A stretch of DNA of 64,000 nucleotides from an uncultured Candidatus Saccharibacteria bacterium (GCA_964515375.1 CAZERF010000004.1:22012-86011); one strand, 5' to 3'. Positions 582-55,146 are shown, numbered from the stretch's first letter. Notes: generated from the letters alone by a model not told the origin. Numbers and translations: made by a program.

Positions 582-600
582 TACAAGGGCGGCCCTTGTA
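582..600. promoter_or_regulatory. palindrome TACAAGGGC-g-GCCCTTGTA, copy 1 of 2 (see 5329-5349)
   Basis: Perfect inverted repeat read directly. It lies ~50 bp upstream of the ATG at 653. The same sequence is found at 5329-5349. Confidence 0.4.
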
Positions 601-652
601 CAAAACTTTTTCTTGCCTTTTTGAAATGTTGCCCATAGTATGCAAGGCACCT

Positions 653-3600
653 ATGCAATACCACAAACTCCTTCTTGGCGCACTCTTGGGCCTTTTCCAG
701 TTTGCTTTCTTCCCCCTCCTCGCCTCCGCGGCTACTTCCATTTCCGGCACCCTTTTCTTCGACACCACATGGACTTCCTTCGGAAGCCCGTATGTTATCG
801 ACGGACAATTCATCATTCCCAAAGGGGTCACCCTCACGATCGAACCCGGTGTGGTCGTGAAGATGGGACAACCTTCTTGTAACTGTTATGCCAATATTTG
901 GGTTTTCGGGACGCTCCACGGGGGAGACCTTGCCGCGTCCGAACGGGTACTCTTCACTTCGATCCACGACGATACGGGAGGAGATACCGACGATGTCTCC
1001 GTCCCTCCGCAACCGGGAGACTGGCGTATGATCAACGTGGGTCCCGGAGGTGTGCTTGTCCTTCACGGTACCGACCTTCGCTATGGTGGTCGCGCCTCCA
1101 CTCCCGGCACATACTTCAACCCCGACAACGTCCGCATGGTGAACAATTCGAGCGGGACGGCCACGCTCCATGATGTCGAGATGTCCTTCGCGTTCGGAAG
1201 CGCCGCATATCGTGACCGATACATGGGCACCACTACGATTGTCGCATCACGATTCCATGACAATCCGATCGGGGTCGAGATTGGACTCGCGGGATCGACC
1301 ACGATCACCGATGCGACCTTTACGCACAACACGGTGGGAATCGTGATCCAAGGAGGAACGACGACGATCGCGCATACCACCTTTTCCGCGAATGGTACCG
1401 GGGTGCAGATGACCTCCCCCGGCGGATCGGTGACGATCCGAGACTCTTCGTTCTCCGAGCATGTGGGGTATGCGGTTTCCAATACGGTCATTGGTACGAT
1501 CGTTGACGCCTCCATGAACTGGTGGGGAAGCACGTCGGGCCCGCGTCATTCGAGCAATCCGACGGGAGTGGGCGACCTCGTCTCCGACCGTGTCCGCTTC
1601 GACTCATGGCTCGGGGAAGTGCCCGGAGCACGCTGTACGGTGAACTGTCATTCGAATGTGTTGTTCCTGCCGGGGATTGAAGCGAGTCGTCTTTATCGTC
1701 CTAGTTATGACGGAAACGGGGGAGAGGATCAGCTGTGGGAACCGAACACACCATCTGATGTGTCGGACCTCTATCTTGATATGTTTGGAAAAAGTCTTCG
1801 CAACGATATTTACACAAGGGATGTGATTGATGAAGCGAACGTCCTTCCTGTGCCGCGACCCAATCTTTACAAATCATTTCTCAAAGAGCTCGAAAAGTGG
1901 CGAGACGAAGAGAATATCATCGAGGATTTTGGAATTGCGCCATATGATTGGCGATTAAGTATGATGGACGTACTCTCCTCGGGGAATCAGGTTTCTGATG
2001 GGCGCATATACTATTCTGGAACATTCGAATCGACCGAAACACCGTTCATTATTCAAGAGTTGCATCGACTTGCTTCGACTTCTCGGACAGGGAAGGTGAC
2101 CATTGTCGCCCACTCAAATGGTGGGCTTGTTGCCAAGGCATTGGTCAATATCCTTGGTTCGGAAGCGGAGAACGTGGTCGACCGGATCATTCTTGTTGCT
2201 GTCCCTCAACTTGGTACACCTCAAGCCGCAGGTGCCCTGCTTCATGGTTATGAGCAAGGTCTCCCCAAAGACAGCATCCCTCTTTTTCTTGATCCGGCAA
2301 CTGCTCGTACGTTTGCGAGCACGTCTCCGATGGTCTACCACCTCCTTCCTTCGTCGGCATATTTCCGTTCAGATGGGGTGCGAACAGTTACGTCGGTCGT
2401 GCGGTTTCGCGGAGGCACCTCGACACAGGGTTTTGTCGATACATACGGTCAAGTAATCGGAAATCCCCTTGAGTTCAAGAGATTTTTAATGGGCGAAGAA
2501 GGTCGCTCCGCCCCACTTCTTGATGACGTGCGTTCACCAAGCGTTCTGTATGCGCATTTCCTTGAATACGCTGAAGAGTTGCACCAATTGCTTGATGAAG
2601 ATTGGTCTCCGTCGTCACCGATCCACATTCATCAAATTGCAGGCATTGGGAGAGAAACGCTCGCAGGGATTGAGTATTGGACGGGGAAGAAATGTGTCCG
2701 CATTGCTCCGCGTGGAGGAGCGTGCCTCAAATATGTTCCGCAGTTGGAGTACACCCCGTACAAGGTGCTCGACGGAGACGGAACTGTGATTATTTCGAGC
2801 GCGTTGGCTATGAGTACAAGCTCGCCGAATGTGTCGCGATGGTGGTTGGATTTGAAGGAGTATAACGAAGAGAATACCGACCGCAAGCACGCCGATATTC
2901 TCGAGGTCTCTCAGCTCCACCAGTTCATCAAGGGGACTATTTTGCTCGGAGGAAAGGGTGACCTCCCTGTGTACATTTCTGACATACCTCCGAATCTCCC
3001 AGAAGAACATCGACTCCTCTTTGTCTTGCATTCCCCACTTCATCTCAGAGTACATGACGCCGTGTCGGGTGAAGTGAGTGCAAGGGTGTCTTCGATACCT
3101 GGAGGGTATTTCGAGCGTATGGGTGAAGTCCAGTATATTTCTGTCCCCGCATCGAGCACCCCCACTCTTGTACTCGAAGGATACACGGAAGGATCTTTTT
3201 CCCTCGAAGTGAAAGAAATGCAAGGGGACACCCTTTTGGCCTCGACGACATTCATGGGAATTCCTTCGTATCAACAGACGAAGGTCACAATGGTGTTCCC
3301 CAGCGGTCGTATCGCTGATGCCTCATTGCTTTCAATTGATCTGGATGGAGATGGGGCTACCGACACAACGATTACTCCTGTTCCTGGCGGAGTGGTCACG
3401 GCACCTCTTGGGAAGATGCCCCTCACCCTCACCGCCGACACCCTCACGCTCACCCTCGGAAGCCCCATTCCTCCACTTTCCGGAACCTTCTTTGGGTTCA
3501 TTGGAGAGGACACCACAGCAACACATACGACCGGCTCTCCGGAGTGTGTGACGACCGCAACCGCCCAGAGTCCTGCGGGAGTTTATCCGATCACCTGTAC

Positions 3601-4024
3601 GATCGGTACCTTTGCTTCCGATGCGTATGAGATCACTACGTTCATTCCCGGTACACTCACGATCCGTTACGCATGGTCCGGTTTCGCTCCACCGCTCAGC
3701 ATCACTCCCACACCCCGCATCTTTAAGCACGGAAGCACGATTCCGCTCACCTTCACGCTCAAGGATGGAGAGGGTCACCCCGTGGAAGCACCGACCCCGC
3801 CACAGCTCCTTCCTCCGGAGCAGGGGAGTCTTCTCCGTGAACCTCTCTCGACGCTTCCCACCACCGACAACCTCCCCGATGGCTCTTTGTTCCGTTTTGA
3901 CCCTCAGGAACAACACTACCGATACAACTTAAGTACCAAGGGTCTCACACCTGGGTATTGGTACACACTCCGAGTGGTACTTGATGATGGGGAGGTCTAT
4001 GAGACAGTCGTGGGGATACGGTAA
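653..4024 (+). CDS. large secreted multidomain protein: parallel beta-helix (PbH1-like) repeats, alpha/beta-hydrolase (lipase-like GxSxG, 'AHSNGG'), MBG-like segment, C-terminal beta-sandwich domain
   Basis: Long ORF, with the frame open from 572. The signal-peptide-like N-terminus MQYHKLLLGALLGLFQFAFFPLLASAA starts at 653; 626 or 572 are alternatives. Gly/Thr/Asn-rich repeats with IxxGxT-type periodicity are typical of beta-helix folds. 'VTIVAHSNGGLVA' is a nucleophile-elbow motif. 'GVYPITCTIGTFASDAYEITTFIPGTLTI' resembles MBG domains. Confidence 0.75.
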   Translation: MQYHKLLLGALLGLFQFAFFPLLASAATSISGTLFFDTTWTSFGSPYVIDGQFIIPKGVTLTIEPGVVVKMGQPSCNCYANIWVFGTLHGGDLAASERVLFTSIHDDTGGDTDDVSVPPQPGDWRMINVGPGGVLVLHGTDLRYGGRASTPGTYFNPDNVRMVNNSSGTATLHDVEMSFAFGSAAYRDRYMGTTTIVASRFHDNPIGVEIGLAGSTTITDATFTHNTVGIVIQGGTTTIAHTTFSANGTGVQMTSPGGSVTIRDSSFSEHVGYAVSNTVIGTIVDASMNWWGSTSGPRHSSNPTGVGDLVSDRVRFDSWLGEVPGARCTVNCHSNVLFLPGIEASRLYRPSYDGNGGEDQLWEPNTPSDVSDLYLDMFGKSLRNDIYTRDVIDEANVLPVPRPNLYKSFLKELEKWRDEENIIEDFGIAPYDWRLSMMDVLSSGNQVSDGRIYYSGTFESTETPFIIQELHRLASTSRTGKVTIVAHSNGGLVAKALVNILGSEAENVVDRIILVAVPQLGTPQAAGALLHGYEQGLPKDSIPLFLDPATARTFASTSPMVYHLLPSSAYFRSDGVRTVTSVVRFRGGTSTQGFVDTYGQVIGNPLEFKRFLMGEEGRSAPLLDDVRSPSVLYAHFLEYAEELHQLLDEDWSPSSPIHIHQIAGIGRETLAGIEYWTGKKCVRIAPRGGACLKYVPQLEYTPYKVLDGDGTVIISSALAMSTSSPNVSRWWLDLKEYNEENTDRKHADILEVSQLHQFIKGTILLGGKGDLPVYISDIPPNLPEEHRLLFVLHSPLHLRVHDAVSGEVSARVSSIPGGYFERMGEVQYISVPASSTPTLVLEGYTEGSFSLEVKEMQGDTLLASTTFMGIPSYQQTKVTMVFPSGRIADASLLSIDLDGDGATDTTITPVPGGVVTAPLGKMPLTLTADTLTLTLGSPIPPLSGTFFGFIGEDTTATHTTGSPECVTTATAQSPAGVYPITCTIGTFASDAYEITTFIPGTLTIRYAWSGFAPPLSITPTPRIFKHGSTIPLTFTLKDGEGHPVEAPTPPQLLPPEQGSLLREPLSTLPTTDNLPDGSLFRFDPQEQHYRYNLSTKGLTPGYWYTLRVVLDDGEVYETVVGIR
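3715..4019 (+). repeat. direct repeat copy A (305 bp), C-terminal domain coding sequence
   Basis: Identical to 4505-4809 except for one mismatch (acgatt vs actatt). The flanks are unrelated. Confidence 0.9.
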
Positions 4025-4055
4025 TAAAAAGAAGAAGATGATATGATGTGTTGAT

Positions 4056-4487
4056 ATGCATAAAGTTGTAACAAAAAAAAATGTACTCATAATCAGTCTG
4101 ATGGGAACTACTCTTGTTTCTTCTCAGTTTTTTTTTGATTCCGATAGTTGTGGAAGTAGTAGTTTTTGTCACGCGATTGGAGGAATACTGAATCAAGAGA
4201 ACATGCTGGTCTTTTCGATTGCGCCATTATTGTTTTTTCTCTCCCTCCTCACCTACCGTCTCCCTCGAACCGTCTTCGGGCACTGGATGGGTTTCGCGAT
4301 CTGGTCCACACCCCTCCTTATGCTCCTCACCTTCCTCATCAATAAAGGAGGACAGAACGGGCTCGGTATGTCCGGCATCATGGGTGGGGCGTTCGACACG
4401 CTTCTCCTTGGACTCTTGTATGGTGCATATATCTTTATCTCCCTCTTCCGTATCGTGAAGGCATGGCGCGCGGAGAGGAGAGGGTGA
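4056..4487 (+). CDS. small multi-pass membrane protein (paralogue of 4859-5269)
   Basis: N-terminal hydrophobic segment, a Cys pair (CGSSSFC), three predicted TM helices and shared motifs with the downstream paralogue (LLSLLTYRLPRTVFGHW vs ILSLVTYRMHETIFRAW). Confidence 0.55.
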   Translation: MHKVVTKKNVLIISLMGTTLVSSQFFFDSDSCGSSSFCHAIGGILNQENMLVFSIAPLLFFLSLLTYRLPRTVFGHWMGFAIWSTPLLMLLTFLINKGGQNGLGMSGIMGGAFDTLLLGLLYGAYIFISLFRIVKAWRAERRG

Positions 4488-4831
4488 TCGCACGCCACGG
4501 TGCTCCTCGTGGGGGCACACCCCGCATCTTTAAGCACGGAAGCACTATTCCGCTCACCTTCACGCTCAAGGATGGAGAGGGTCACCCCGTGGAAGCACCG
4601 ACCCCGCCACAGCTCCTTCCTCCGGAGCAGGGGAGTCTTCTCCGTGAACCTCTCTCGACGCTTCCCACCACCGACAACCTCCCCGATGGCTCTTTGTTCC
4701 GTTTTGACCCTCAGGAACAACACTACCGATACAACTTAAGTACCAAGGGTCTCACACCTGGGTATTGGTACACACTCCGAGTGGTACTTGATGATGGGGA
4801 GGTCTATGAGACAGTCGTGGGGATACGATAG
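4463..4831 (+). pseudogene. orphan copy of the C-terminal beta-sandwich domain of the large protein (stand-alone ORF or gene fragment/cassette)
   Basis: The 122-aa ORF has its last ~105 aa identical to residues ~1048-1150 of the 653-4024 protein. The 15-aa N-terminal lead is unique, has no convincing SD and overlaps the end of the upstream gene. Confidence 0.35.
4505..4809 (+). repeat. direct repeat copy B (305 bp)
   Basis: See 3715-4019. Confidence 0.9.
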
Positions 4832-4858: not shown

Positions 4859-5269
4859 ATGAAACACATGAATACGATGATGACGAAAAGGAGTGTGTTA
4901 TTTATTTCCTCAATCTATGTCATTTGCATTATTGGGGTGCTTGTTTTAAGTAAGTGTTATGGAGACAGATGGTGTCCGTTAAATATAAATCATCTCGACA
5001 AGGTGCCCGTGCTGATTCTCCTCCCTCTCCTCCCGGCATTCATCCTCTCTCTTGTGACCTATCGTATGCACGAAACAATATTTCGCGCATGGGTCACCTT
5101 CGCGCAGTGGTGGGTCCCACTCTCGGCATTGGCGGTGTTCCTTACGCCGAATGCACGCGGTTTCATTATTATCCCGTACCAGTCGATCCTTGCTGTGACG
5201 AGCGCCCTTCTCTTTTTGGTTATCTCACTCGGTATTATTGTGTGGAAATGGAGAGCACTCAAGAAGTGA
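4859..5269 (+). CDS. small multi-pass membrane protein (paralogue of 4056-4487)
   Basis: Same architecture: TM anchor, Cys pair (CYGDRWC) and three TM helices. Confidence 0.55.
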   Translation: MKHMNTMMTKRSVLFISSIYVICIIGVLVLSKCYGDRWCPLNINHLDKVPVLILLPLLPAFILSLVTYRMHETIFRAWVTFAQWWVPLSALAVFLTPNARGFIIIPYQSILAVTSALLFLVISLGIIVWKWRALKK

Positions 5270-5328
5270 CGCTCTGTGGAGATTGCAATGCAGTAAGGGG
5301 GATATGAGGGTGCGAAGCGGATATTCGC

Positions 5329-5349
5329 GTACAAGGGCGGCCCTTGTAC
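5329..5349. promoter_or_regulatory. palindrome GTACAAGGGC-g-GCCCTTGTAC, copy 2 of 2
   Basis: Perfect 10-1-10 inverted repeat, 62 bp upstream of the ATG at 5411. Confidence 0.4.
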
Positions 5350-7644: not shown

Positions 7645-8604
7645 ATGAAAAACGAGGACTCGCAACAATGGAATGTTTTGGTGACTGCGGCGGGAGGGCC
7701 GGCGGGAGTGAACGCTTTGCGCCTTCTTCGTGCACACCCGGAATTACGTCTTTTTGGCGTGGATATTGACCCCGAATCTTTAGGGAGAGAGATCGCACAT
7801 GAATTCGCGGTGGTGGCTCCATTTGTTGAGCGTGAACGCTATCGTGAGGACCTTCGACGCATGGTCACTGAATGGAAGATCCATGTCGTCATCCCGACGC
7901 TTGCGGATGAACTCCACGAGATCGAGGAGGCACTCGCGGGGCTTTCGGTGCACGTCTTGGTATCACCCCGCGAGACTGCGCGTATCTGTTCCGATAAGCG
8001 ACTGCTGTATACGTGGATGGAGGAGTATCTTCCTGAATATACCGCGCAGTGGCAGACGCTTGATCATCCGCTTGCGTGGGACGCTCCGGAGTATTTTGTG
8101 AAGCCCGCGGTCGGTCGCGGCGCGCGCGGGTGCCGACTCGTAAAAAAGGAAGATCTCCCGGCGCTTATCGCGGATCTTGAGCATCCCGAAGAATGGGTAG
8201 CGATGGATGTCCTTCCCGGAAAGGAGTGGACGGTTGATGCGTATGTTGCCCGCGACGGAGAGCCTGTCTTCATCGTGCCTCGCGAGCGGATGGAGGTGGT
8301 GGGGGGTATTTCGCGTCGCGGTCGCACGGAGCGTCATGCGCAGGTGATCGCGCAGACACGTGCGGTTCTCGATGTGCTTTCTTTTGTCGGCCCTGTTTGC
8401 GTGCAATGGAAGGAGGATGGTATGGGTGGGGTGAAATTGGTGGAGATCAACGCACGACTCTCCGGCGGGCTCATGATCACGGTCGCCGCAGGTGCAGATC
8501 CGATGAAGATATTTGCCGATGAATTGCTCGGGCGCCCGTTGGTGCCGCCGGAATGGCAGGAGGGAGAATTCACGGGGTTTACCGATTTTACCAGAGCAAG
8601 GTAA
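7645..8604 (+). CDS. ATP-grasp domain protein
   Basis: N-terminal Rossmann-like 'VLVTAAGGPAGVNALR'. The C-terminus has the ATP-grasp pattern '...VEINARLSGG'. Confidence 0.7.
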   Translation: MKNEDSQQWNVLVTAAGGPAGVNALRLLRAHPELRLFGVDIDPESLGREIAHEFAVVAPFVERERYREDLRRMVTEWKIHVVIPTLADELHEIEEALAGLSVHVLVSPRETARICSDKRLLYTWMEEYLPEYTAQWQTLDHPLAWDAPEYFVKPAVGRGARGCRLVKKEDLPALIADLEHPEEWVAMDVLPGKEWTVDAYVARDGEPVFIVPRERMEVVGGISRRGRTERHAQVIAQTRAVLDVLSFVGPVCVQWKEDGMGGVKLVEINARLSGGLMITVAAGADPMKIFADELLGRPLVPPEWQEGEFTGFTDFTRAR

Positions 8605-8610
8605 TATGAA

Positions 8611-9219
8611 TTGCATATGAATGTCATTGCATTCGGGGCACATCCTGACGATATCGAGATCGGAGCCGGAGGCACACTTGCTCGGCATGTGGCGGAAGGT
8701 GATAGGGTTATGATGGTTGTGTTGACGGGCGGAGAGCGCGGCGGAGCGGACACGACGACTCGCGTACAAGAACTCAAGGATTCCGCCAAGATATTAGGTG
8801 TGCAGGAGGTGGTCTGTCTTGATTTTCCCGATACGGATATTCCCGAGTCACCGGCTGTTGTTGATCAGCTCGATGCCCTTGTTGCAAAGTGGAAACCGAA
8901 GCGCGCATATATTCCTTTTACGCGCGAGATCCACCAGGATCATCGGCGGACATCCGAGCAAGCGCTTGTCGCTTGTCGGAATATGCCCCAGATATTGATG
9001 TATGAAGGTCCGAGCACGTTCCCCGATTTTGAGGTGAACTACTGGGTTGATATTACAACTACGATCGACAAGAAGAGTGTGGCGATCGCCGCATACGGAA
9101 GTCAAGGTGAGAAAGAGATATTAAAGATCGACGCGATCCGTAGTCTCAATCGCTTCCGCGGTTTCCAGGCGCGCGGAACGTATGCCGAAGGTTTTCATGT
9201 TTTTCGTTTCATCGAGTGA
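8611..9219 (+). CDS. PIG-L/LmbE family N-acetylglucosaminyl deacetylase
   Basis: 'NVIAFGAHPDDIEIGAGGTLA' is the family signature (AHPDDE-like), followed by conserved His/Asp positions. Confidence 0.8.
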   Translation: MHMNVIAFGAHPDDIEIGAGGTLARHVAEGDRVMMVVLTGGERGGADTTTRVQELKDSAKILGVQEVVCLDFPDTDIPESPAVVDQLDALVAKWKPKRAYIPFTREIHQDHRRTSEQALVACRNMPQILMYEGPSTFPDFEVNYWVDITTTIDKKSVAIAAYGSQGEKEILKIDAIRSLNRFRGFQARGTYAEGFHVFRFIE

Positions 9220-9222
9220 CCG

Positions 9223-10350
9223 ATGCGGATGCGTCCTATGCAGCACAAGAAAAAAAAACTCTGTTTTGTTCTTCCTGAGTACGCATCCGCGACACACTTC
9301 ACTTATGTCGCGGAGTTTATTGAAGCGCTTGCGGAGGAGTTCGATATATTTTTGATCGTTGAGAAGGGGATGCTTCCCGCGACATCACGCGTTTCTCGTC
9401 GGTATCGGGTACGCTCTCGTTTCGCACCTTTGCGCGTTCTTGAGACCATGTTCCTTCTTTTGCGCGCACGATCGCTCGGTTTTCGCATACAATACATTCA
9501 CTATTCATTCGTTGGTGCGATCGGAAGCGGGCTGATCACGCGTCTCTTTGGAGGAAGAACATTGTACTGGAATTGCGGGATGCCGTGGAAGTATACGCGT
9601 CCGCGCATCCAAGAATGGTATGAACATCTTGCTTTTCGTTTCATTCATATATTGGTGACGGGGGCCGACGCGCTCGTTTCGGGATATGCGAGATACTTCG
9701 GTATTTCCGCCGAGTCCATTGTTGTCATTCCGAACTGGATCGACGTTGCCGCTACTGACCGCACCGTCGCTCACCATGACAACGCTTCGCTTCGGCAAGA
9801 ACTTGCTATCCCTCTTGATGCGCCGATCCTCCTTTTTGTGCATCGGCTCGCGCGGCGCAAGGGGGCACACCTTCTTCCTGACATCCTCGCGCGGATAGAG
9901 CACCCGCATGCAGTCCTTGTCGTTGTTGGGGACGGTCCCGAGCGTGCTCTCCTTTCGGAGCGTTTTCGTTCGGAGGGGCTTTTCGAACGGGTGCGCATGG
10001 TGGGCGCGATCCCGCAGCATGAGGTCTTTCGGTATCTTTCCGCGGCGAATATCTTTCTTCTACCCTCAGAGGAGGAGGGGTTTCCTCATGTCCTCACCGA
10101 AGCAATGACGCTTCGTGTGCCGTATGTCGCAAGCGATGTCGGCGGAGTGCGCGAGATGACTCCTCCTGAGGCCCGTTCATTCATTGTTCCGTTTGGCGAT
10201 GTTCCTCACTTCGCGCGGGCGGTTGACCGGTTGATCGCAGACACGACGCTCCGCTCTCATGTTGGAGATACTCTACGGCAATGGGTTGTTCGTTATGATA
10301 AGAAACTTATTCTCGAACGATTCTCCTCGCTTATTCGGGGAATTTCATGA
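9223..10350 (+). CDS. glycosyltransferase family 4
   Basis: 'EEEGFPHVLTEAMTLRVPYVASDVGGVREM'. Confidence 0.8.
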   Translation: MRMRPMQHKKKKLCFVLPEYASATHFTYVAEFIEALAEEFDIFLIVEKGMLPATSRVSRRYRVRSRFAPLRVLETMFLLLRARSLGFRIQYIHYSFVGAIGSGLITRLFGGRTLYWNCGMPWKYTRPRIQEWYEHLAFRFIHILVTGADALVSGYARYFGISAESIVVIPNWIDVAATDRTVAHHDNASLRQELAIPLDAPILLFVHRLARRKGAHLLPDILARIEHPHAVLVVVGDGPERALLSERFRSEGLFERVRMVGAIPQHEVFRYLSAANIFLLPSEEEGFPHVLTEAMTLRVPYVASDVGGVREMTPPEARSFIVPFGDVPHFARAVDRLIADTTLRSHVGDTLRQWVVRYDKKLILERFSSLIRGIS

Positions 10351-11053: not shown

Positions 11054-12196
11054 ATGAGTATCCATCTTCTCATGTTGCATGACGACGCCGCTATTCTTGA
11101 CACCGATTCTCCTCTCCGCGCACGTTTGCGTGAACAAGCCGAATCGCTCATCGAGCTTCACGTGCTTGTGCCGTCGAGCAAAAGAGGGGATCACGAGCTG
11201 GTGAGGGATGGAAACATGTTCATCTACCCGATCGACACGTCGAAGAAGTGGGCGTTTTTTTCGGAGATGCGACGTGTCGGAGGCGAGATCTTGAGGGAAC
11301 GCGATAGAGCTGCGCGTTGGCTCGTGACCGCGCAGGATCCCTTCATGGTCGGCGCCGTCGCGTACCTCCTTGCCCGTCGTTTTCGTCTTCCGCTTCATCT
11401 CCAGGTGCACACCGATCCGTTCAGCCCTCGGTGGAGAACCGCTTCCTTGCGACATCGGATCGAATACGTGCTCTCACTTTTTCTTCTCACGCACGCCGAT
11501 GCGATACGCGTTGTATCGGAGCGAGTTCAAAGTGGGGTTCGCGCGCTCGGTGTTCCGAGTTCAAAGATCACCAAGGTCCCCATTTGGGTTGACGTTGATC
11601 ATTTTCGCGCCACCCCCGCATCGTTTGACCTTCATCGTTCATATCCGATCTACGCGAAGATCATCCTTTGCATCGGACGATTGGAACCCGAGAAGAACGT
11701 CAACGGTCTCATTCGCGCATTCGCGCGCGTGCACAAGGCTCACAGGGATACGATGTTGCTTATTGTCGGAAGCGGTTCCGAGAAGGAACGTCTCGTCACA
11801 CTTGCACGCTCTCTTGATCTCAAAAATTCCGTTGTTGTTGCTCCGTGGGCGCGAGACCTCGTCTCGTACTATAAGACCTGTGATATCTACGTGCAGCCTT
11901 CACATTATGAAGGGTGGGGGATGGCCGTTGTCGAAGCGCTTGCATCGGGAGCGCCGGTCATTATGACCGACGTCGGGTGCGCGGGAGAGATCGTGCGCAA
12001 TGAAGACACAGGGCTTGTTGTGCGTGTCGGAAGCGAGGACGAACTCACCCACGCCCTCATGCGTCTCGTTGAGAACAATTCCTTGCGGCTCGCGCTTTCT
12101 GCCGCCGGTTCGCGCGCGGTCGAACATTGTGCGACCAAAGAGGAGACCCTCGAGTTGTATAAGGCGAGTTGGGAGCGCGCCTTCACGCGGAACTGA
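11054..12196 (+). CDS. glycosyltransferase family 4
   Basis: 'EGWGMAVVEALASGAPVIMTDVGCAGEIVRNEDTGLVV'. The ORF is open from 11003; the start is taken at MSIHLLML. Confidence 0.8.
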   Translation: MSIHLLMLHDDAAILDTDSPLRARLREQAESLIELHVLVPSSKRGDHELVRDGNMFIYPIDTSKKWAFFSEMRRVGGEILRERDRAARWLVTAQDPFMVGAVAYLLARRFRLPLHLQVHTDPFSPRWRTASLRHRIEYVLSLFLLTHADAIRVVSERVQSGVRALGVPSSKITKVPIWVDVDHFRATPASFDLHRSYPIYAKIILCIGRLEPEKNVNGLIRAFARVHKAHRDTMLLIVGSGSEKERLVTLARSLDLKNSVVVAPWARDLVSYYKTCDIYVQPSHYEGWGMAVVEALASGAPVIMTDVGCAGEIVRNEDTGLVVRVGSEDELTHALMRLVENNSLRLALSAAGSRAVEHCATKEETLELYKASWERAFTRN

Positions 12197-31830: not shown

Positions 31831-31993
31831 TTTTTTTAAAAATGAGTTGAGTGTGTGATGAATGAGAGAGATAATAGTAGTAGGAGTGTTCATTGTTTGA
31901 ATTTGAAATTCTTTCTCGAGGAACACTCGTATCAACATTGAGATGCTTTCAGGTCGAAGCATACTATTATCAGCCGCTAATCTTTCACTACTA

Positions 31994-32107
31994 TGGTGGT
32001 AAAGAAGAAGGCAGCAAAGAAGGCAGTCAAGAAGGTTGCCAAGAAGGCTGCACCGAAGAAGAAGGTGGCGAAGAAGGTAGCCAAGAAGAAGGTTGCCAAG
32101 AAGAAGT
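31994..32107 (+). CDS. lysine/alanine-rich histone-H1-like small basic protein (37 aa)
   Basis: Read by eye in a frame the ORF track does not report: MVVKKKAAKKAVKKVAKKAAPKKKVAKKVAKKKVAKKK. A candidate promoter TTGAGA-17-ATACTAT lies upstream and a strong terminator lies downstream. Confidence 0.5.
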
Positions 32108-36457: not shown

Positions 36458-36523
36458 ATGGCAAAAGGAAGCGACAAGCAGAAGAAGGAAGCAAAGAAGC
36501 CCAAGAAGGCGGCAAAGAAGTAA
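36458..36523 (+). CDS. tiny lysine-rich peptide (21 aa)
   Basis: MAKGSDKQKKEAKKPKKAAKK, followed by the hairpin 'gaacggcaccccgccgttc'. No SD. Confidence 0.25.
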   Translation: MAKGSDKQKKEAKKPKKAAKK

Positions 36524-55072: not shown

Positions 55073-55146
55073 TCCGGTGTAGCTCAGTGGTAGAGCAGTG
55101 CGCTGTTAACGCATTGGTCGCAGGTTCGAATCCTGCCGCCGGAGCC
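55073..55146 (+). tRNA. tRNA-Asn (anticodon GUU)
   Basis: 7-bp acceptor stem (UCCGGUG/CGCCGGA with one G-U), D-loop AGCUCAGUGGUAGAGC, anticodon loop CUGUUAA, T-arm GGUUCGAAUCC, discriminator G; CC is encoded. Confidence 0.85.

Follow-up and report, generated by a model that had tools for sequence, protein, structure and literature searches.

Models of orphan displacement and recombination have been proposed for the modules of contact-dependent growth inhibition (CDI) and Rhs loci (PMC4927057). The T7SS (type VII secretion system) lipase toxins of Staphylococcus aureus occur with arrays of non-identical immunity genes located at recombination hotspots, and immunity genes are found orphaned where the lipase toxin is absent (PMC13560087). 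Here we describe a locus that shares features with both systems, contained in a stretch of 64,000 nucleotides from an uncultured Candidatus Saccharibacteria bacterium (GCA_964515375.1, CAZERF010000004.1:22012-86011), which we call the window: a large gene encoding a secreted hydrolase is followed by a small membrane-protein gene (mem1), by a short open reading frame (ORF B) that repeats the large gene's 3' end, and by a second small membrane-protein gene (mem2). By the literature that we found, such an arrangement of hydrolase and mem cassettes had not been described before.

The repeat was delimited by comparing the window with itself: at an offset of 807, positions 3709-4020 (copy A) match positions 4516-4827 (copy B) over 312 bp with one mismatch (99.7% identity). 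The mismatch, 3739 G versus 4546 T, lies in a threonine codon in both copies (ACG/ACT). Copy A ends inside the final arginine codon, four bases short of the end of the stop codon, and in these next four bases CGG is replaced by CGA, which also encodes arginine, and TAA by TAG; the three changes that separate the ORF ends are thus all silent, two being synonymous and one exchanging a stop codon for another. Neither a third copy nor any other repeat of similar length or identity was found within the 64-kb window. A reading made from the sequence alone had proposed a near-perfect repeat of 305 bp with one base different; the repeat and its single difference stand, and only its length had to be extended. 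The interval given then for copy A (3715-4019) is contained in ours, while that for copy B (4505-4809) was too low by about 17 bp, since 3715-4019 in fact pairs with 4522-4826. The flanks had been thought to share no similarity, and this holds for the 5' flanks of copies A and B, which are unrelated, but not for the 3' flanks toward mem1 and mem2, where a weak, diverged similarity can be seen by eye (GAAGAAG.TGATAT.ATG). At the joint 4515|4516 no microhomology is present. Copy B is probably part of an orphan cassette, composed of a 5'-truncated hydrolase 3' end and mem2, which now stands behind an intact gene and mem1.

ORF B is located between mem1 and mem2 and is composed of a unique lead of 17-18 residues followed by 104 residues that match the large protein's end exactly; its 122 residues and its overlap with the 3' end of mem1, which we measure as 25 nt, had been read correctly in the sequence-only reading, together with the assignment of copy A to the C-terminus of the large protein (by our count its last 104 codons), while the lead had been put at 15 residues. 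An alternative GTG start of ORF B at 4484 overlaps the stop codon of mem1 (GTGA) and lies downstream of the purine-rich stretch GGAGAGGAGAGG. The repeat covers most of a PxKF domain, which is described by the NCBIfam model NF038114, a model with 'rightmost' in its name and a curated cut-off of 35 bits. Copy A reaches 61.5 bits against it and covers model positions 1-111 of 113, and the C-terminal 160 residues of the large protein reach 66.7 bits; in fact, this PxKF domain is the rightmost domain of a protein with a signal peptide and ends one residue before the stop codon. ORF B reaches 60.7 bits, also above the cut-off, but over positions 13-111 only, and no signal peptide was found in it; lacking both the signal peptide and the first 12 model positions, it falls short of the complete domain of secreted PxKF proteins. 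A single-sequence AlphaFold model of the PxKF region was unusable (predicted local distance difference test, pLDDT, of 48), so that whether copy B is without a core strand was judged by the coverage of the hidden Markov model (HMM).

Sister lineages were recovered from Logan assemblies through the 90%-identity cluster of ORF B, and their gene order is that of the window: a sigma-70 factor gene, a variable block and a cluster of genes for family 4 glycosyltransferases (GT4). L001/L002, L003, L005 and L006 have one copy of the repeat, with the end typical of copy B (CGATAG), and mem2; mem1 and a second copy of the repeat are absent from all five sister-lineage assemblies. The junction between PxKF and mem2, found in every sister lineage, is the product expected from a deletion between two repeats. 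Copies A and B each differ from the single copies of the sister lineages at 4-10 sites, against one site in 312 between them. This sole difference falls on a site that is polymorphic among lineages, and L005 combines the A-type base at 3739 with the B-type end, which is the pattern expected of a recombinant between A and B. The mem2 gene is present in all sister lineages, and its codons in the window differ from those in L001, L005 and L006 by 15 synonymous changes and one non-synonymous change; mem2 is thus under purifying selection, even where the hydrolase has been deleted.

Deletion of the hydrolase is a second sign of instability at this locus. A common short allele, carried by L001/L004, L002, L003 and L005, joins window position 789 to 3453; junction sequences and blastn blocks define a deletion of 2,676 bp between two 10-bp direct repeats (Table 1), which takes out 892 codons in frame, so that a protein of 231 residues (P0003) composed of signal peptide, MBG and PxKF remains. 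The short allele of L003 has an extra frameshift. L006 carries a different in-frame deletion, in which 831 is joined to 3936/4743 to give an ORF of 84 residues, and it retains positions 790-831. Both deletions, with products of 231 and 84 residues, keep the signal peptide and the last PxKF residues ahead of mem2; the junctions can be found at 10125-10137 in L001 and at 2479-2491 in L006. The 231-residue allele is common to lineages whose flanks are about 10% different. A search of metagenomes with the large protein of the window (P0005) returned one close partial contig, L063, in which the first 1.7 kb of the long allele is present and 93.7% identical. Two observations, the retention of positions 790-831 in L006 and the long N-terminus of L063, make the long allele ancestral and rule out the short alleles of the sister lineages as the original state. 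With the long allele ancestral and two different in-frame deletions, the hydrolase must have been deleted at least two times independently.

Identity between the window and the sister lineages is mosaic: 88-90% in the flanks, 95-99.6% in positions 3453-3708 and 97-99% in the repeat, which implies recent recombination between lineages at the locus. The mem content is also variable, since the window has mem1 and mem2, L003 has mem2 and mem3, and L001 has mem2 only. In L003, mem3 is an N-terminally truncated third paralogue (E 2e-19 with the family HMM), contained in a segment of 463 bp (L003 10942-11403) which lies between mem2 and a downstream palindrome and replaces 29 bp of the window (5296-5324). 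A 14-mer, GAGAGGGTGATCGC, is found at the stop codon of mem1 (window 4478-4491) and at that of mem3 in L003, there just before the palindrome, which hints that in a donor allele mem1 was once last in order ahead of the palindrome. The palindrome, of 20 nt, occurs exactly twice in the 64 kb, against 0.01 copies expected by chance, and it is conserved in L003 at 9714-9733 and 11410-11429; the pair brackets the strain-variable block, and it may be a shared operator, that is a binding site of a regulator, or a recombination boundary. Outside the repeat locus, in the glycosyltransferase cluster, window positions 8001-10000 are 98.5% identical to L003 14080-16079, while adjacent stretches are about 92% identical, and they appear to represent a further recombination tract.

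The most likely origin of copy B, being also the most economical, is displacement by recombination. An exchange between strains would have placed an allele composed of hydrolase, PxKF and mem1 ahead of a resident PxKF-mem2; the left crossover would have been homologous, and the right joint, 4515|4516, would be illegitimate because it has no microhomology. The reasoning is that of the displacement model put forward for CDI and Rhs orphans (PMC4927057). The 312-bp repeat would then offer a substrate for homologous recombination, and a crossover between its copies would remove mem1 and leave hydrolase-PxKF-mem2. A simple recent tandem duplication of a unit made of PxKF end and mem was ruled out, as the divergence of mem1, mem2 and the spacers upstream of them is ancient, against 99.7% identity in the repeat. 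The A/B pair has had too little time to acquire signs of selection or decay. As a whole, the repeat appears to mark a structurally unstable spot, where one copy, mem1 and the hydrolase are already gone in sister lineages.

The layout of the window was then compared with other Patescibacteria. In the three loci looked at first, mem lies 16-120 nt downstream of a gene for an LCAT/DUF7379 protein of 765-1078 residues without MBG or PxKF. A GTDB-wide scan added 49 further loci, labelled as Kaiser-, Moran-, Lloyd-, Yonath- and Magasanikbacteria, Paceibacterota, Saccharibacteria and others, with a few automated labels outside the candidate phyla radiation (CPR). Pairing was counted over the 38 loci with at least 1.5 kb of upstream sequence: in 36 of them an ORF with the hydrolase core ends at the start of mem on the same strand, which shows hydrolase and mem to be a conserved two-gene module across Patescibacteria. 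The sequence-only reading had named as evidence against itself orthologous loci with a single copy and with membrane genes unrelated to the large protein; a single copy is what the sister lineages have, whereas the linkage in 36 of 38 loci contradicts the second part. A PxKF C-terminus is present in 5 of 44 hydrolases, most others sharing a different, 'type I' C-terminal domain, which matched no known family; the conserved partner of mem is the whole LCAT-like hydrolase gene and not the PxKF domain. In L011 (3205-5985), L019 (3209-5986) and L038 (2022-5980) the hydrolase is split into two ORFs, and it is intact in their close relatives L012 and L013, which suggests recurrent inactivation of the hydrolase in other CPR lineages. 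The metagenome-assembled genome that contains L032 has a second locus (L033 5204-5827) in which an ORF of 208 residues with a complete PxKF domain lies directly upstream of mem; with no hydrolase core, this locus resembles the short allele seen in sister lineages of the window.

Two to four mem copies are present in 14 of the 52 loci, and in 8 of these 14 short ORFs that copy the extreme C-terminus of the hydrolase are located between consecutive mem genes (L015, L024, L029, L035, L037, L045, L047 with three and L051 with three). Nearly all these orphans reach the end of the 107-position C-terminal model (position 105-107). Most of them are 5'-truncated domains, starting at model positions 12-24, and most end a few to about 40 nt ahead of the next mem-type gene. 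In L051 the order is hydrolase, mem, an orphan of 192 residues, mem, mem, a small remnant and mem, the 192-residue orphan being 83% identical in nucleotides to the 3' end of the hydrolase; in L047 orphans of 302, 302 and 155 residues alternate with mem-type ORFs; in L045 a type-I fragment stands behind a PxKF-type hydrolase. Orphans are 35-82% identical to the main copy at the amino acid level, and the proportion of non-synonymous differences (pN) is far below that of synonymous ones (pS) in every orphan pair examined; the ratio of the corresponding rates (dN/dS) is 0.21 between the main copy and an orphan of L051 and 0.13 between orphans 1 and 3 of L047. By these comparisons, the orphan fragments of other lineages have diverged under purifying selection, and copy B of the window is the youngest known example of an orphan C-terminal fragment with a membrane gene. 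The likeness to the cassettes of polymorphic loci, suggested earlier for the window, is borne out by these eight other loci, which have the same unit and in which the orphans are variant.

Against this background, ORF B could be a passive by-product, either a dead fragment or a remnant acting in cis on mem2 by translational coupling or upstream signals. Such a role would fit its lack of a signal peptide and of the first 12 model positions, the overlap of the mem1 stop with the possible GTG start, and the open frame that three independent truncations upstream of mem2, namely the 231-residue allele, the 84-residue allele and ORF B, all keep into the end of the repeat; moreover, no terminator or consensus promoter lies between the genes, where scans for either gave nothing beyond shuffled expectation. 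We nevertheless regard this explanation as doubtful, because the orphans of other lineages are conserved at the amino acid level (dN/dS 0.13-0.21), beyond what an open frame would need, and several of them are long, up to 302 residues; the A/B pair itself, given its youth, can show neither decay nor constraint.

The main alternative for the origin of the repeat is concerted evolution: an ancient tandem duplication of PxKF end and mem, in which gene conversion from the expressed copy keeps PxKF identical. The sharp boundaries of a 99.7% identical repeat between mem genes and upstream spacers that are deeply diverged would be explained in this way, and the amino acid constraint on the orphans of other lineages could also come from periodic conversion. 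We consider it unlikely, since five sister assemblies are without mem1 or a second copy, mem1 is a singleton in public data, and the A/B difference at a lineage-polymorphic site hints at two allelic sources; homogenisation is also not general in the arrays, as shown by orphans that are only 35-82% identical to their main copies.

That ORF B is an independently expressed, stand-alone PxKF-like small protein with its own function is improbable. It is an annotated gene of the NCBI record, its score clears the cut-off of the model and a coupled start is plausible; however, PxKF otherwise ends secreted proteins, whereas ORF B has no signal peptide, and its domain is truncated at the N-terminal edge, as are most orphans elsewhere (model positions 12-24). 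The alternative of a stand-alone small secreted domain, raised in the sequence-only reading, is accordingly not supported. An assembly artefact, in which two co-occurring strain variants (PxKF-mem1 and PxKF-mem2) were threaded through the shared 312 bp, is very improbable, for although the contig is of metagenome type, its two-copy state is unique among the assemblies and related single-copy strains coexist in public data, a variant bubble would not make the unique joint 4515|4516 between the 3' flank of mem1 and the start of the repeat, and an equal architecture is found in independent assemblies of unrelated CPR lineages, whose diverged copies cannot be collapsed or threaded.

The products of mem1 and mem2 belong to a family for which no Pfam or NCBIfam model gave a match; a Pfam match of mem1 to EACC1 was rejected as noise (E 0.059, 13.8 bits versus a cut-off of 23.6). 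mem1 matches the family HMM at E 5e-38, but much of the strongly conserved motif of the family, TYKMRDEVFRAWW.FARWWVP, is gone in it. The two proteins had been proposed as paralogues of about 35% identity; they are paralogues (E 4e-11), at 30%. mem1 groups with a Gly-rich subtype and mem2 with the other subtype, so that their split predates the divergence of the sampled CPR lineages; the difference in subtype, set beside the single site that separates A from B and the 4-10 that separate them from the sister copies, agrees with the earlier view of old membrane genes beside a domain copy that is recent or homogenised. A paralogue-profile search returned about 20 clusters, of which every named one is from CPR, and a HMMER scan of 1.84 billion representatives gave 1,395 members of the family at E<=1e-3. 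mem1 itself is a singleton in public protein data by a word-indexed protein search, and a metagenome scan with it gave no match. The AlphaFold2 model of mem2 (pLDDT 78) has four long helices, which fits a protein with four transmembrane (4-TM) segments; compared with the PDB it gave nothing at E<=0.001, the best TM-scores, about 0.3, being to generic helical bundles. By the positive-inside rule, applied by eye, the N-terminus is likely to be inside and the Cys-x-Cys loop extracellular. Three family members of 271-281 residues (P0026, P0060 and P0167) have two matched stretches each and resemble fused tandem mem copies. Multi-mem loci (L015, L026, L029, L035, L036, L045, L051, L058 and the window) usually have both subtypes, often alternating; since both usually occur within one array, the subtypes may be complementary and not redundant.

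The large protein has 1123 residues, one fewer than had been counted, and the beta-helix, hydrolase and MBG regions proposed for it correspond to the Pfam families Beta_helix, LCAT and MBG_2, to which NCBIfam adds PxKF. LCAT (PF02450) reaches 41.5 bits against a gathering threshold of 21. A candidate catalytic triad, composed of Ser488 (AHSNGG), Asp709 (GDGxV) and His746 (KHxxILE), is invariant in the window, L008, L009 and L012, and the hydrolase core (window residues ~313-935) is 41-45% identical to the hydrolases of these three loci. An exact look-up found no contig on record that encodes P0005 or the mem1 protein (P0001), and a scan of genome contigs with P0005 as the query gave no match; the search for homologues of the PxKF domain returned only the 84-residue allele of L006. 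The neighbouring genes encode a sigma-70 factor, a HAD-like hydrolase and the GT4 glycosyltransferase cluster. The coordinates of all features are given in Table 1.

Table 1. Features of the hydrolase-mem locus, in window coordinates.
Feature	Position	Strand	Description
20-nt palindrome TACAAGGGCGGCCCTTGTAC, copy 1	582..601	.	51 nt upstream of the large-gene start; left bracket
Large secreted protein gene	653..4024	+	1123 aa, identical to database protein P0005
Signal peptide	653-730	+	Sec-type, read from the sequence MQYHKLLLGALLGLFQFAFFPLLASA
Left 10-bp direct repeat TCGGAAGCCC	780..789	+	Deletion junction
Beta_helix	1151-1480	+	Pfam
Family-conserved hydrolase core	1589-3457	+	Includes invariant Ser488, Asp709, His746
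LCAT-like alpha/beta-hydrolase	1856-2383	+	Pfam match (LCAT/PGAP1-type)
MBG_2	3422-3661	+	Pfam
Right 10-bp direct repeat TCGGAAGCCC	3456..3465	+	Deletion junction
PxKF domain	3677-4015	+	NCBIfam NF038114
Repeat copy A	3709..4020	+	Final 104 codons of the large gene; takes in most of the PxKF domain
mem1 (P0001)	4056..4487	+	143 aa, predicted 4-TM, divergent member of the Gly-rich subtype
ORF B (P0002)	4463..4831	+	122 aa; an annotated gene of the NCBI source record
Repeat copy B	4516..4827	+	One mismatch with copy A (4546 T)
mem2	4859..5269	+	136 aa, 4-TM, second mem subtype; 129 aa if the start is 4880
20-nt palindrome, copy 2	5330..5349	.	About 60 nt upstream of the GT4 start (5409); right bracket

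Elsewhere in the window, units of AAGAAGGC(A/T)GC with a period of 12 nt are found at 31990-32100 and 36476-36520, which would encode repeats rich in lysine and alanine (KKAAKK type), and a single tRNA gene at 55073-55144 is the only Rfam match.

As for function, we hold it possible, though short of probable, that the hydrolase is a secreted effector of the lipase/acyltransferase type and that the mem products are protective or partner membrane proteins, kept in non-identical arrays and outlasting deletion of the hydrolase. This effector/immunity reading derives from the combination of a secreted lipase-type enzyme, arrays of non-identical mem genes and the retention of mem after loss of the enzyme; a role of mem as an anchor or a partner would be equally compatible with the conserved TYKMRDEVFRAWW motif. 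More tentatively, we suggest that these loci represent a widespread, undescribed polymorphic system, in which a Sec-secreted LCAT-like enzyme acts with a 4-TM partner, the C-terminal domain and mem form a recombining cassette, and the orphans are kept by selection and swapped or lost through homologous recombination.

Several points weigh against the displaced cassette and the polymorphic system to which it would belong. The two-copy state with mem1 is seen in one assembly only, and the A/B pair has a single informative site, so that displacement, in-situ duplication and gene conversion are inseparable in it. No link of C-terminal domain type to mem subtype was seen, in a sample that is biased to one subtype. 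The strong conservation of the mem motif is atypical of fast-evolving immunity proteins. Finally, unlike the orphans of classical polymorphic toxins, the duplicated module is identical and non-catalytic, the conserved catalytic domain being upstream of it.

CPR bacteria spend their lives attached to other microbes, unable to make lipids of their own. In better-studied bacteria, orphan gene ends under selection are the mark that polymorphic effector/immunity loci leave in a genome. If our interpretation is true, the hydrolase and mem would be a concrete candidate for the means by which CPR direct conflict at membranes or acquire lipids, and the locus would be a system for diversifying effector/immunity or enzyme/anchor components in organisms dependent on the lipids of their hosts; it would also be a new case of recombining cassettes whose handle is a non-catalytic C-terminal domain, with the displacement of a cassette captured in the window almost as it occurred.

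Two described systems are the closest in organization. In CDI (cdiA-CT/cdiI) and Rhs loci, as here, the gene for a large secreted protein is followed by a small cognate gene (PMC4927057), and downstream on the same strand lie 5'-truncated 3' copies of that gene, each accompanied by a small gene of its own; the homology that these copies retain to the main gene permits recombination, in which the first small gene is deleted, and the loci vary between strains. The repeated module of this locus is, however, not a variable toxin domain but a non-catalytic PxKF or 'type I' domain, the sole catalytic domain detected being the central LCAT-like hydrolase, which is upstream and conserved. Moreover, a boundary motif of VENN or PxxxxDPxGL type is not evident in the sequences read here, the context contains no type V (CdiB), type VI or type VII secretion system genes (T5SS, T6SS, T7SS), no transposase and no integrase genes, and the orphan of the window is identical and not variant. 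The non-catalytic repeated module, the upstream conserved catalytic domain and the lack of a boundary motif and of dedicated secretion set the locus apart from CDI and Rhs.

The Tsl-Til 'rafts' (TslA-TilA, TslM-TilM) and the T6SS Tle-Tli pairs also have a phospholipase-type alpha/beta-hydrolase whose catalytic domain precedes a non-catalytic one at the C-terminus, small membrane-associated proteins that are non-identical and stand in arrays, recombination hotspots, and small genes kept without the lipase. They differ in that the hydrolase of the window has a Sec-type signal peptide in place of an LXG-like domain, a Lap partner and T7SS/T6SS genes, none of which is present here; in that the 4-TM mem protein is polytopic and resembles none of the DUF576, DUF1433 or Tli families; and in their hosts, which here are Patescibacteria.

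At the level of single domains, copy A is a typical member of the PxKF proteins (NF038114), being full-length and at the extreme C-terminus, whereas copy B is without positions 1-12 and an export signal. In the literature, nothing relevant was found on PxKF, on DUF7379 or on Patescibacteria together with an LCAT-type hydrolase, and this family is not covered in the lipocone paper. With the LCAT/PGAP1-like hydrolases (PF02450, PF07819, DUF7379) the large protein shares an LCAT score above gathering and invariant Ser, Asp and His residues; unlike them it is a larger multidomain protein, with a beta-helix N-terminus, a conserved core of about 600 residues, MBG and PxKF, and it is obligately paired with a gene for a 4-TM protein.

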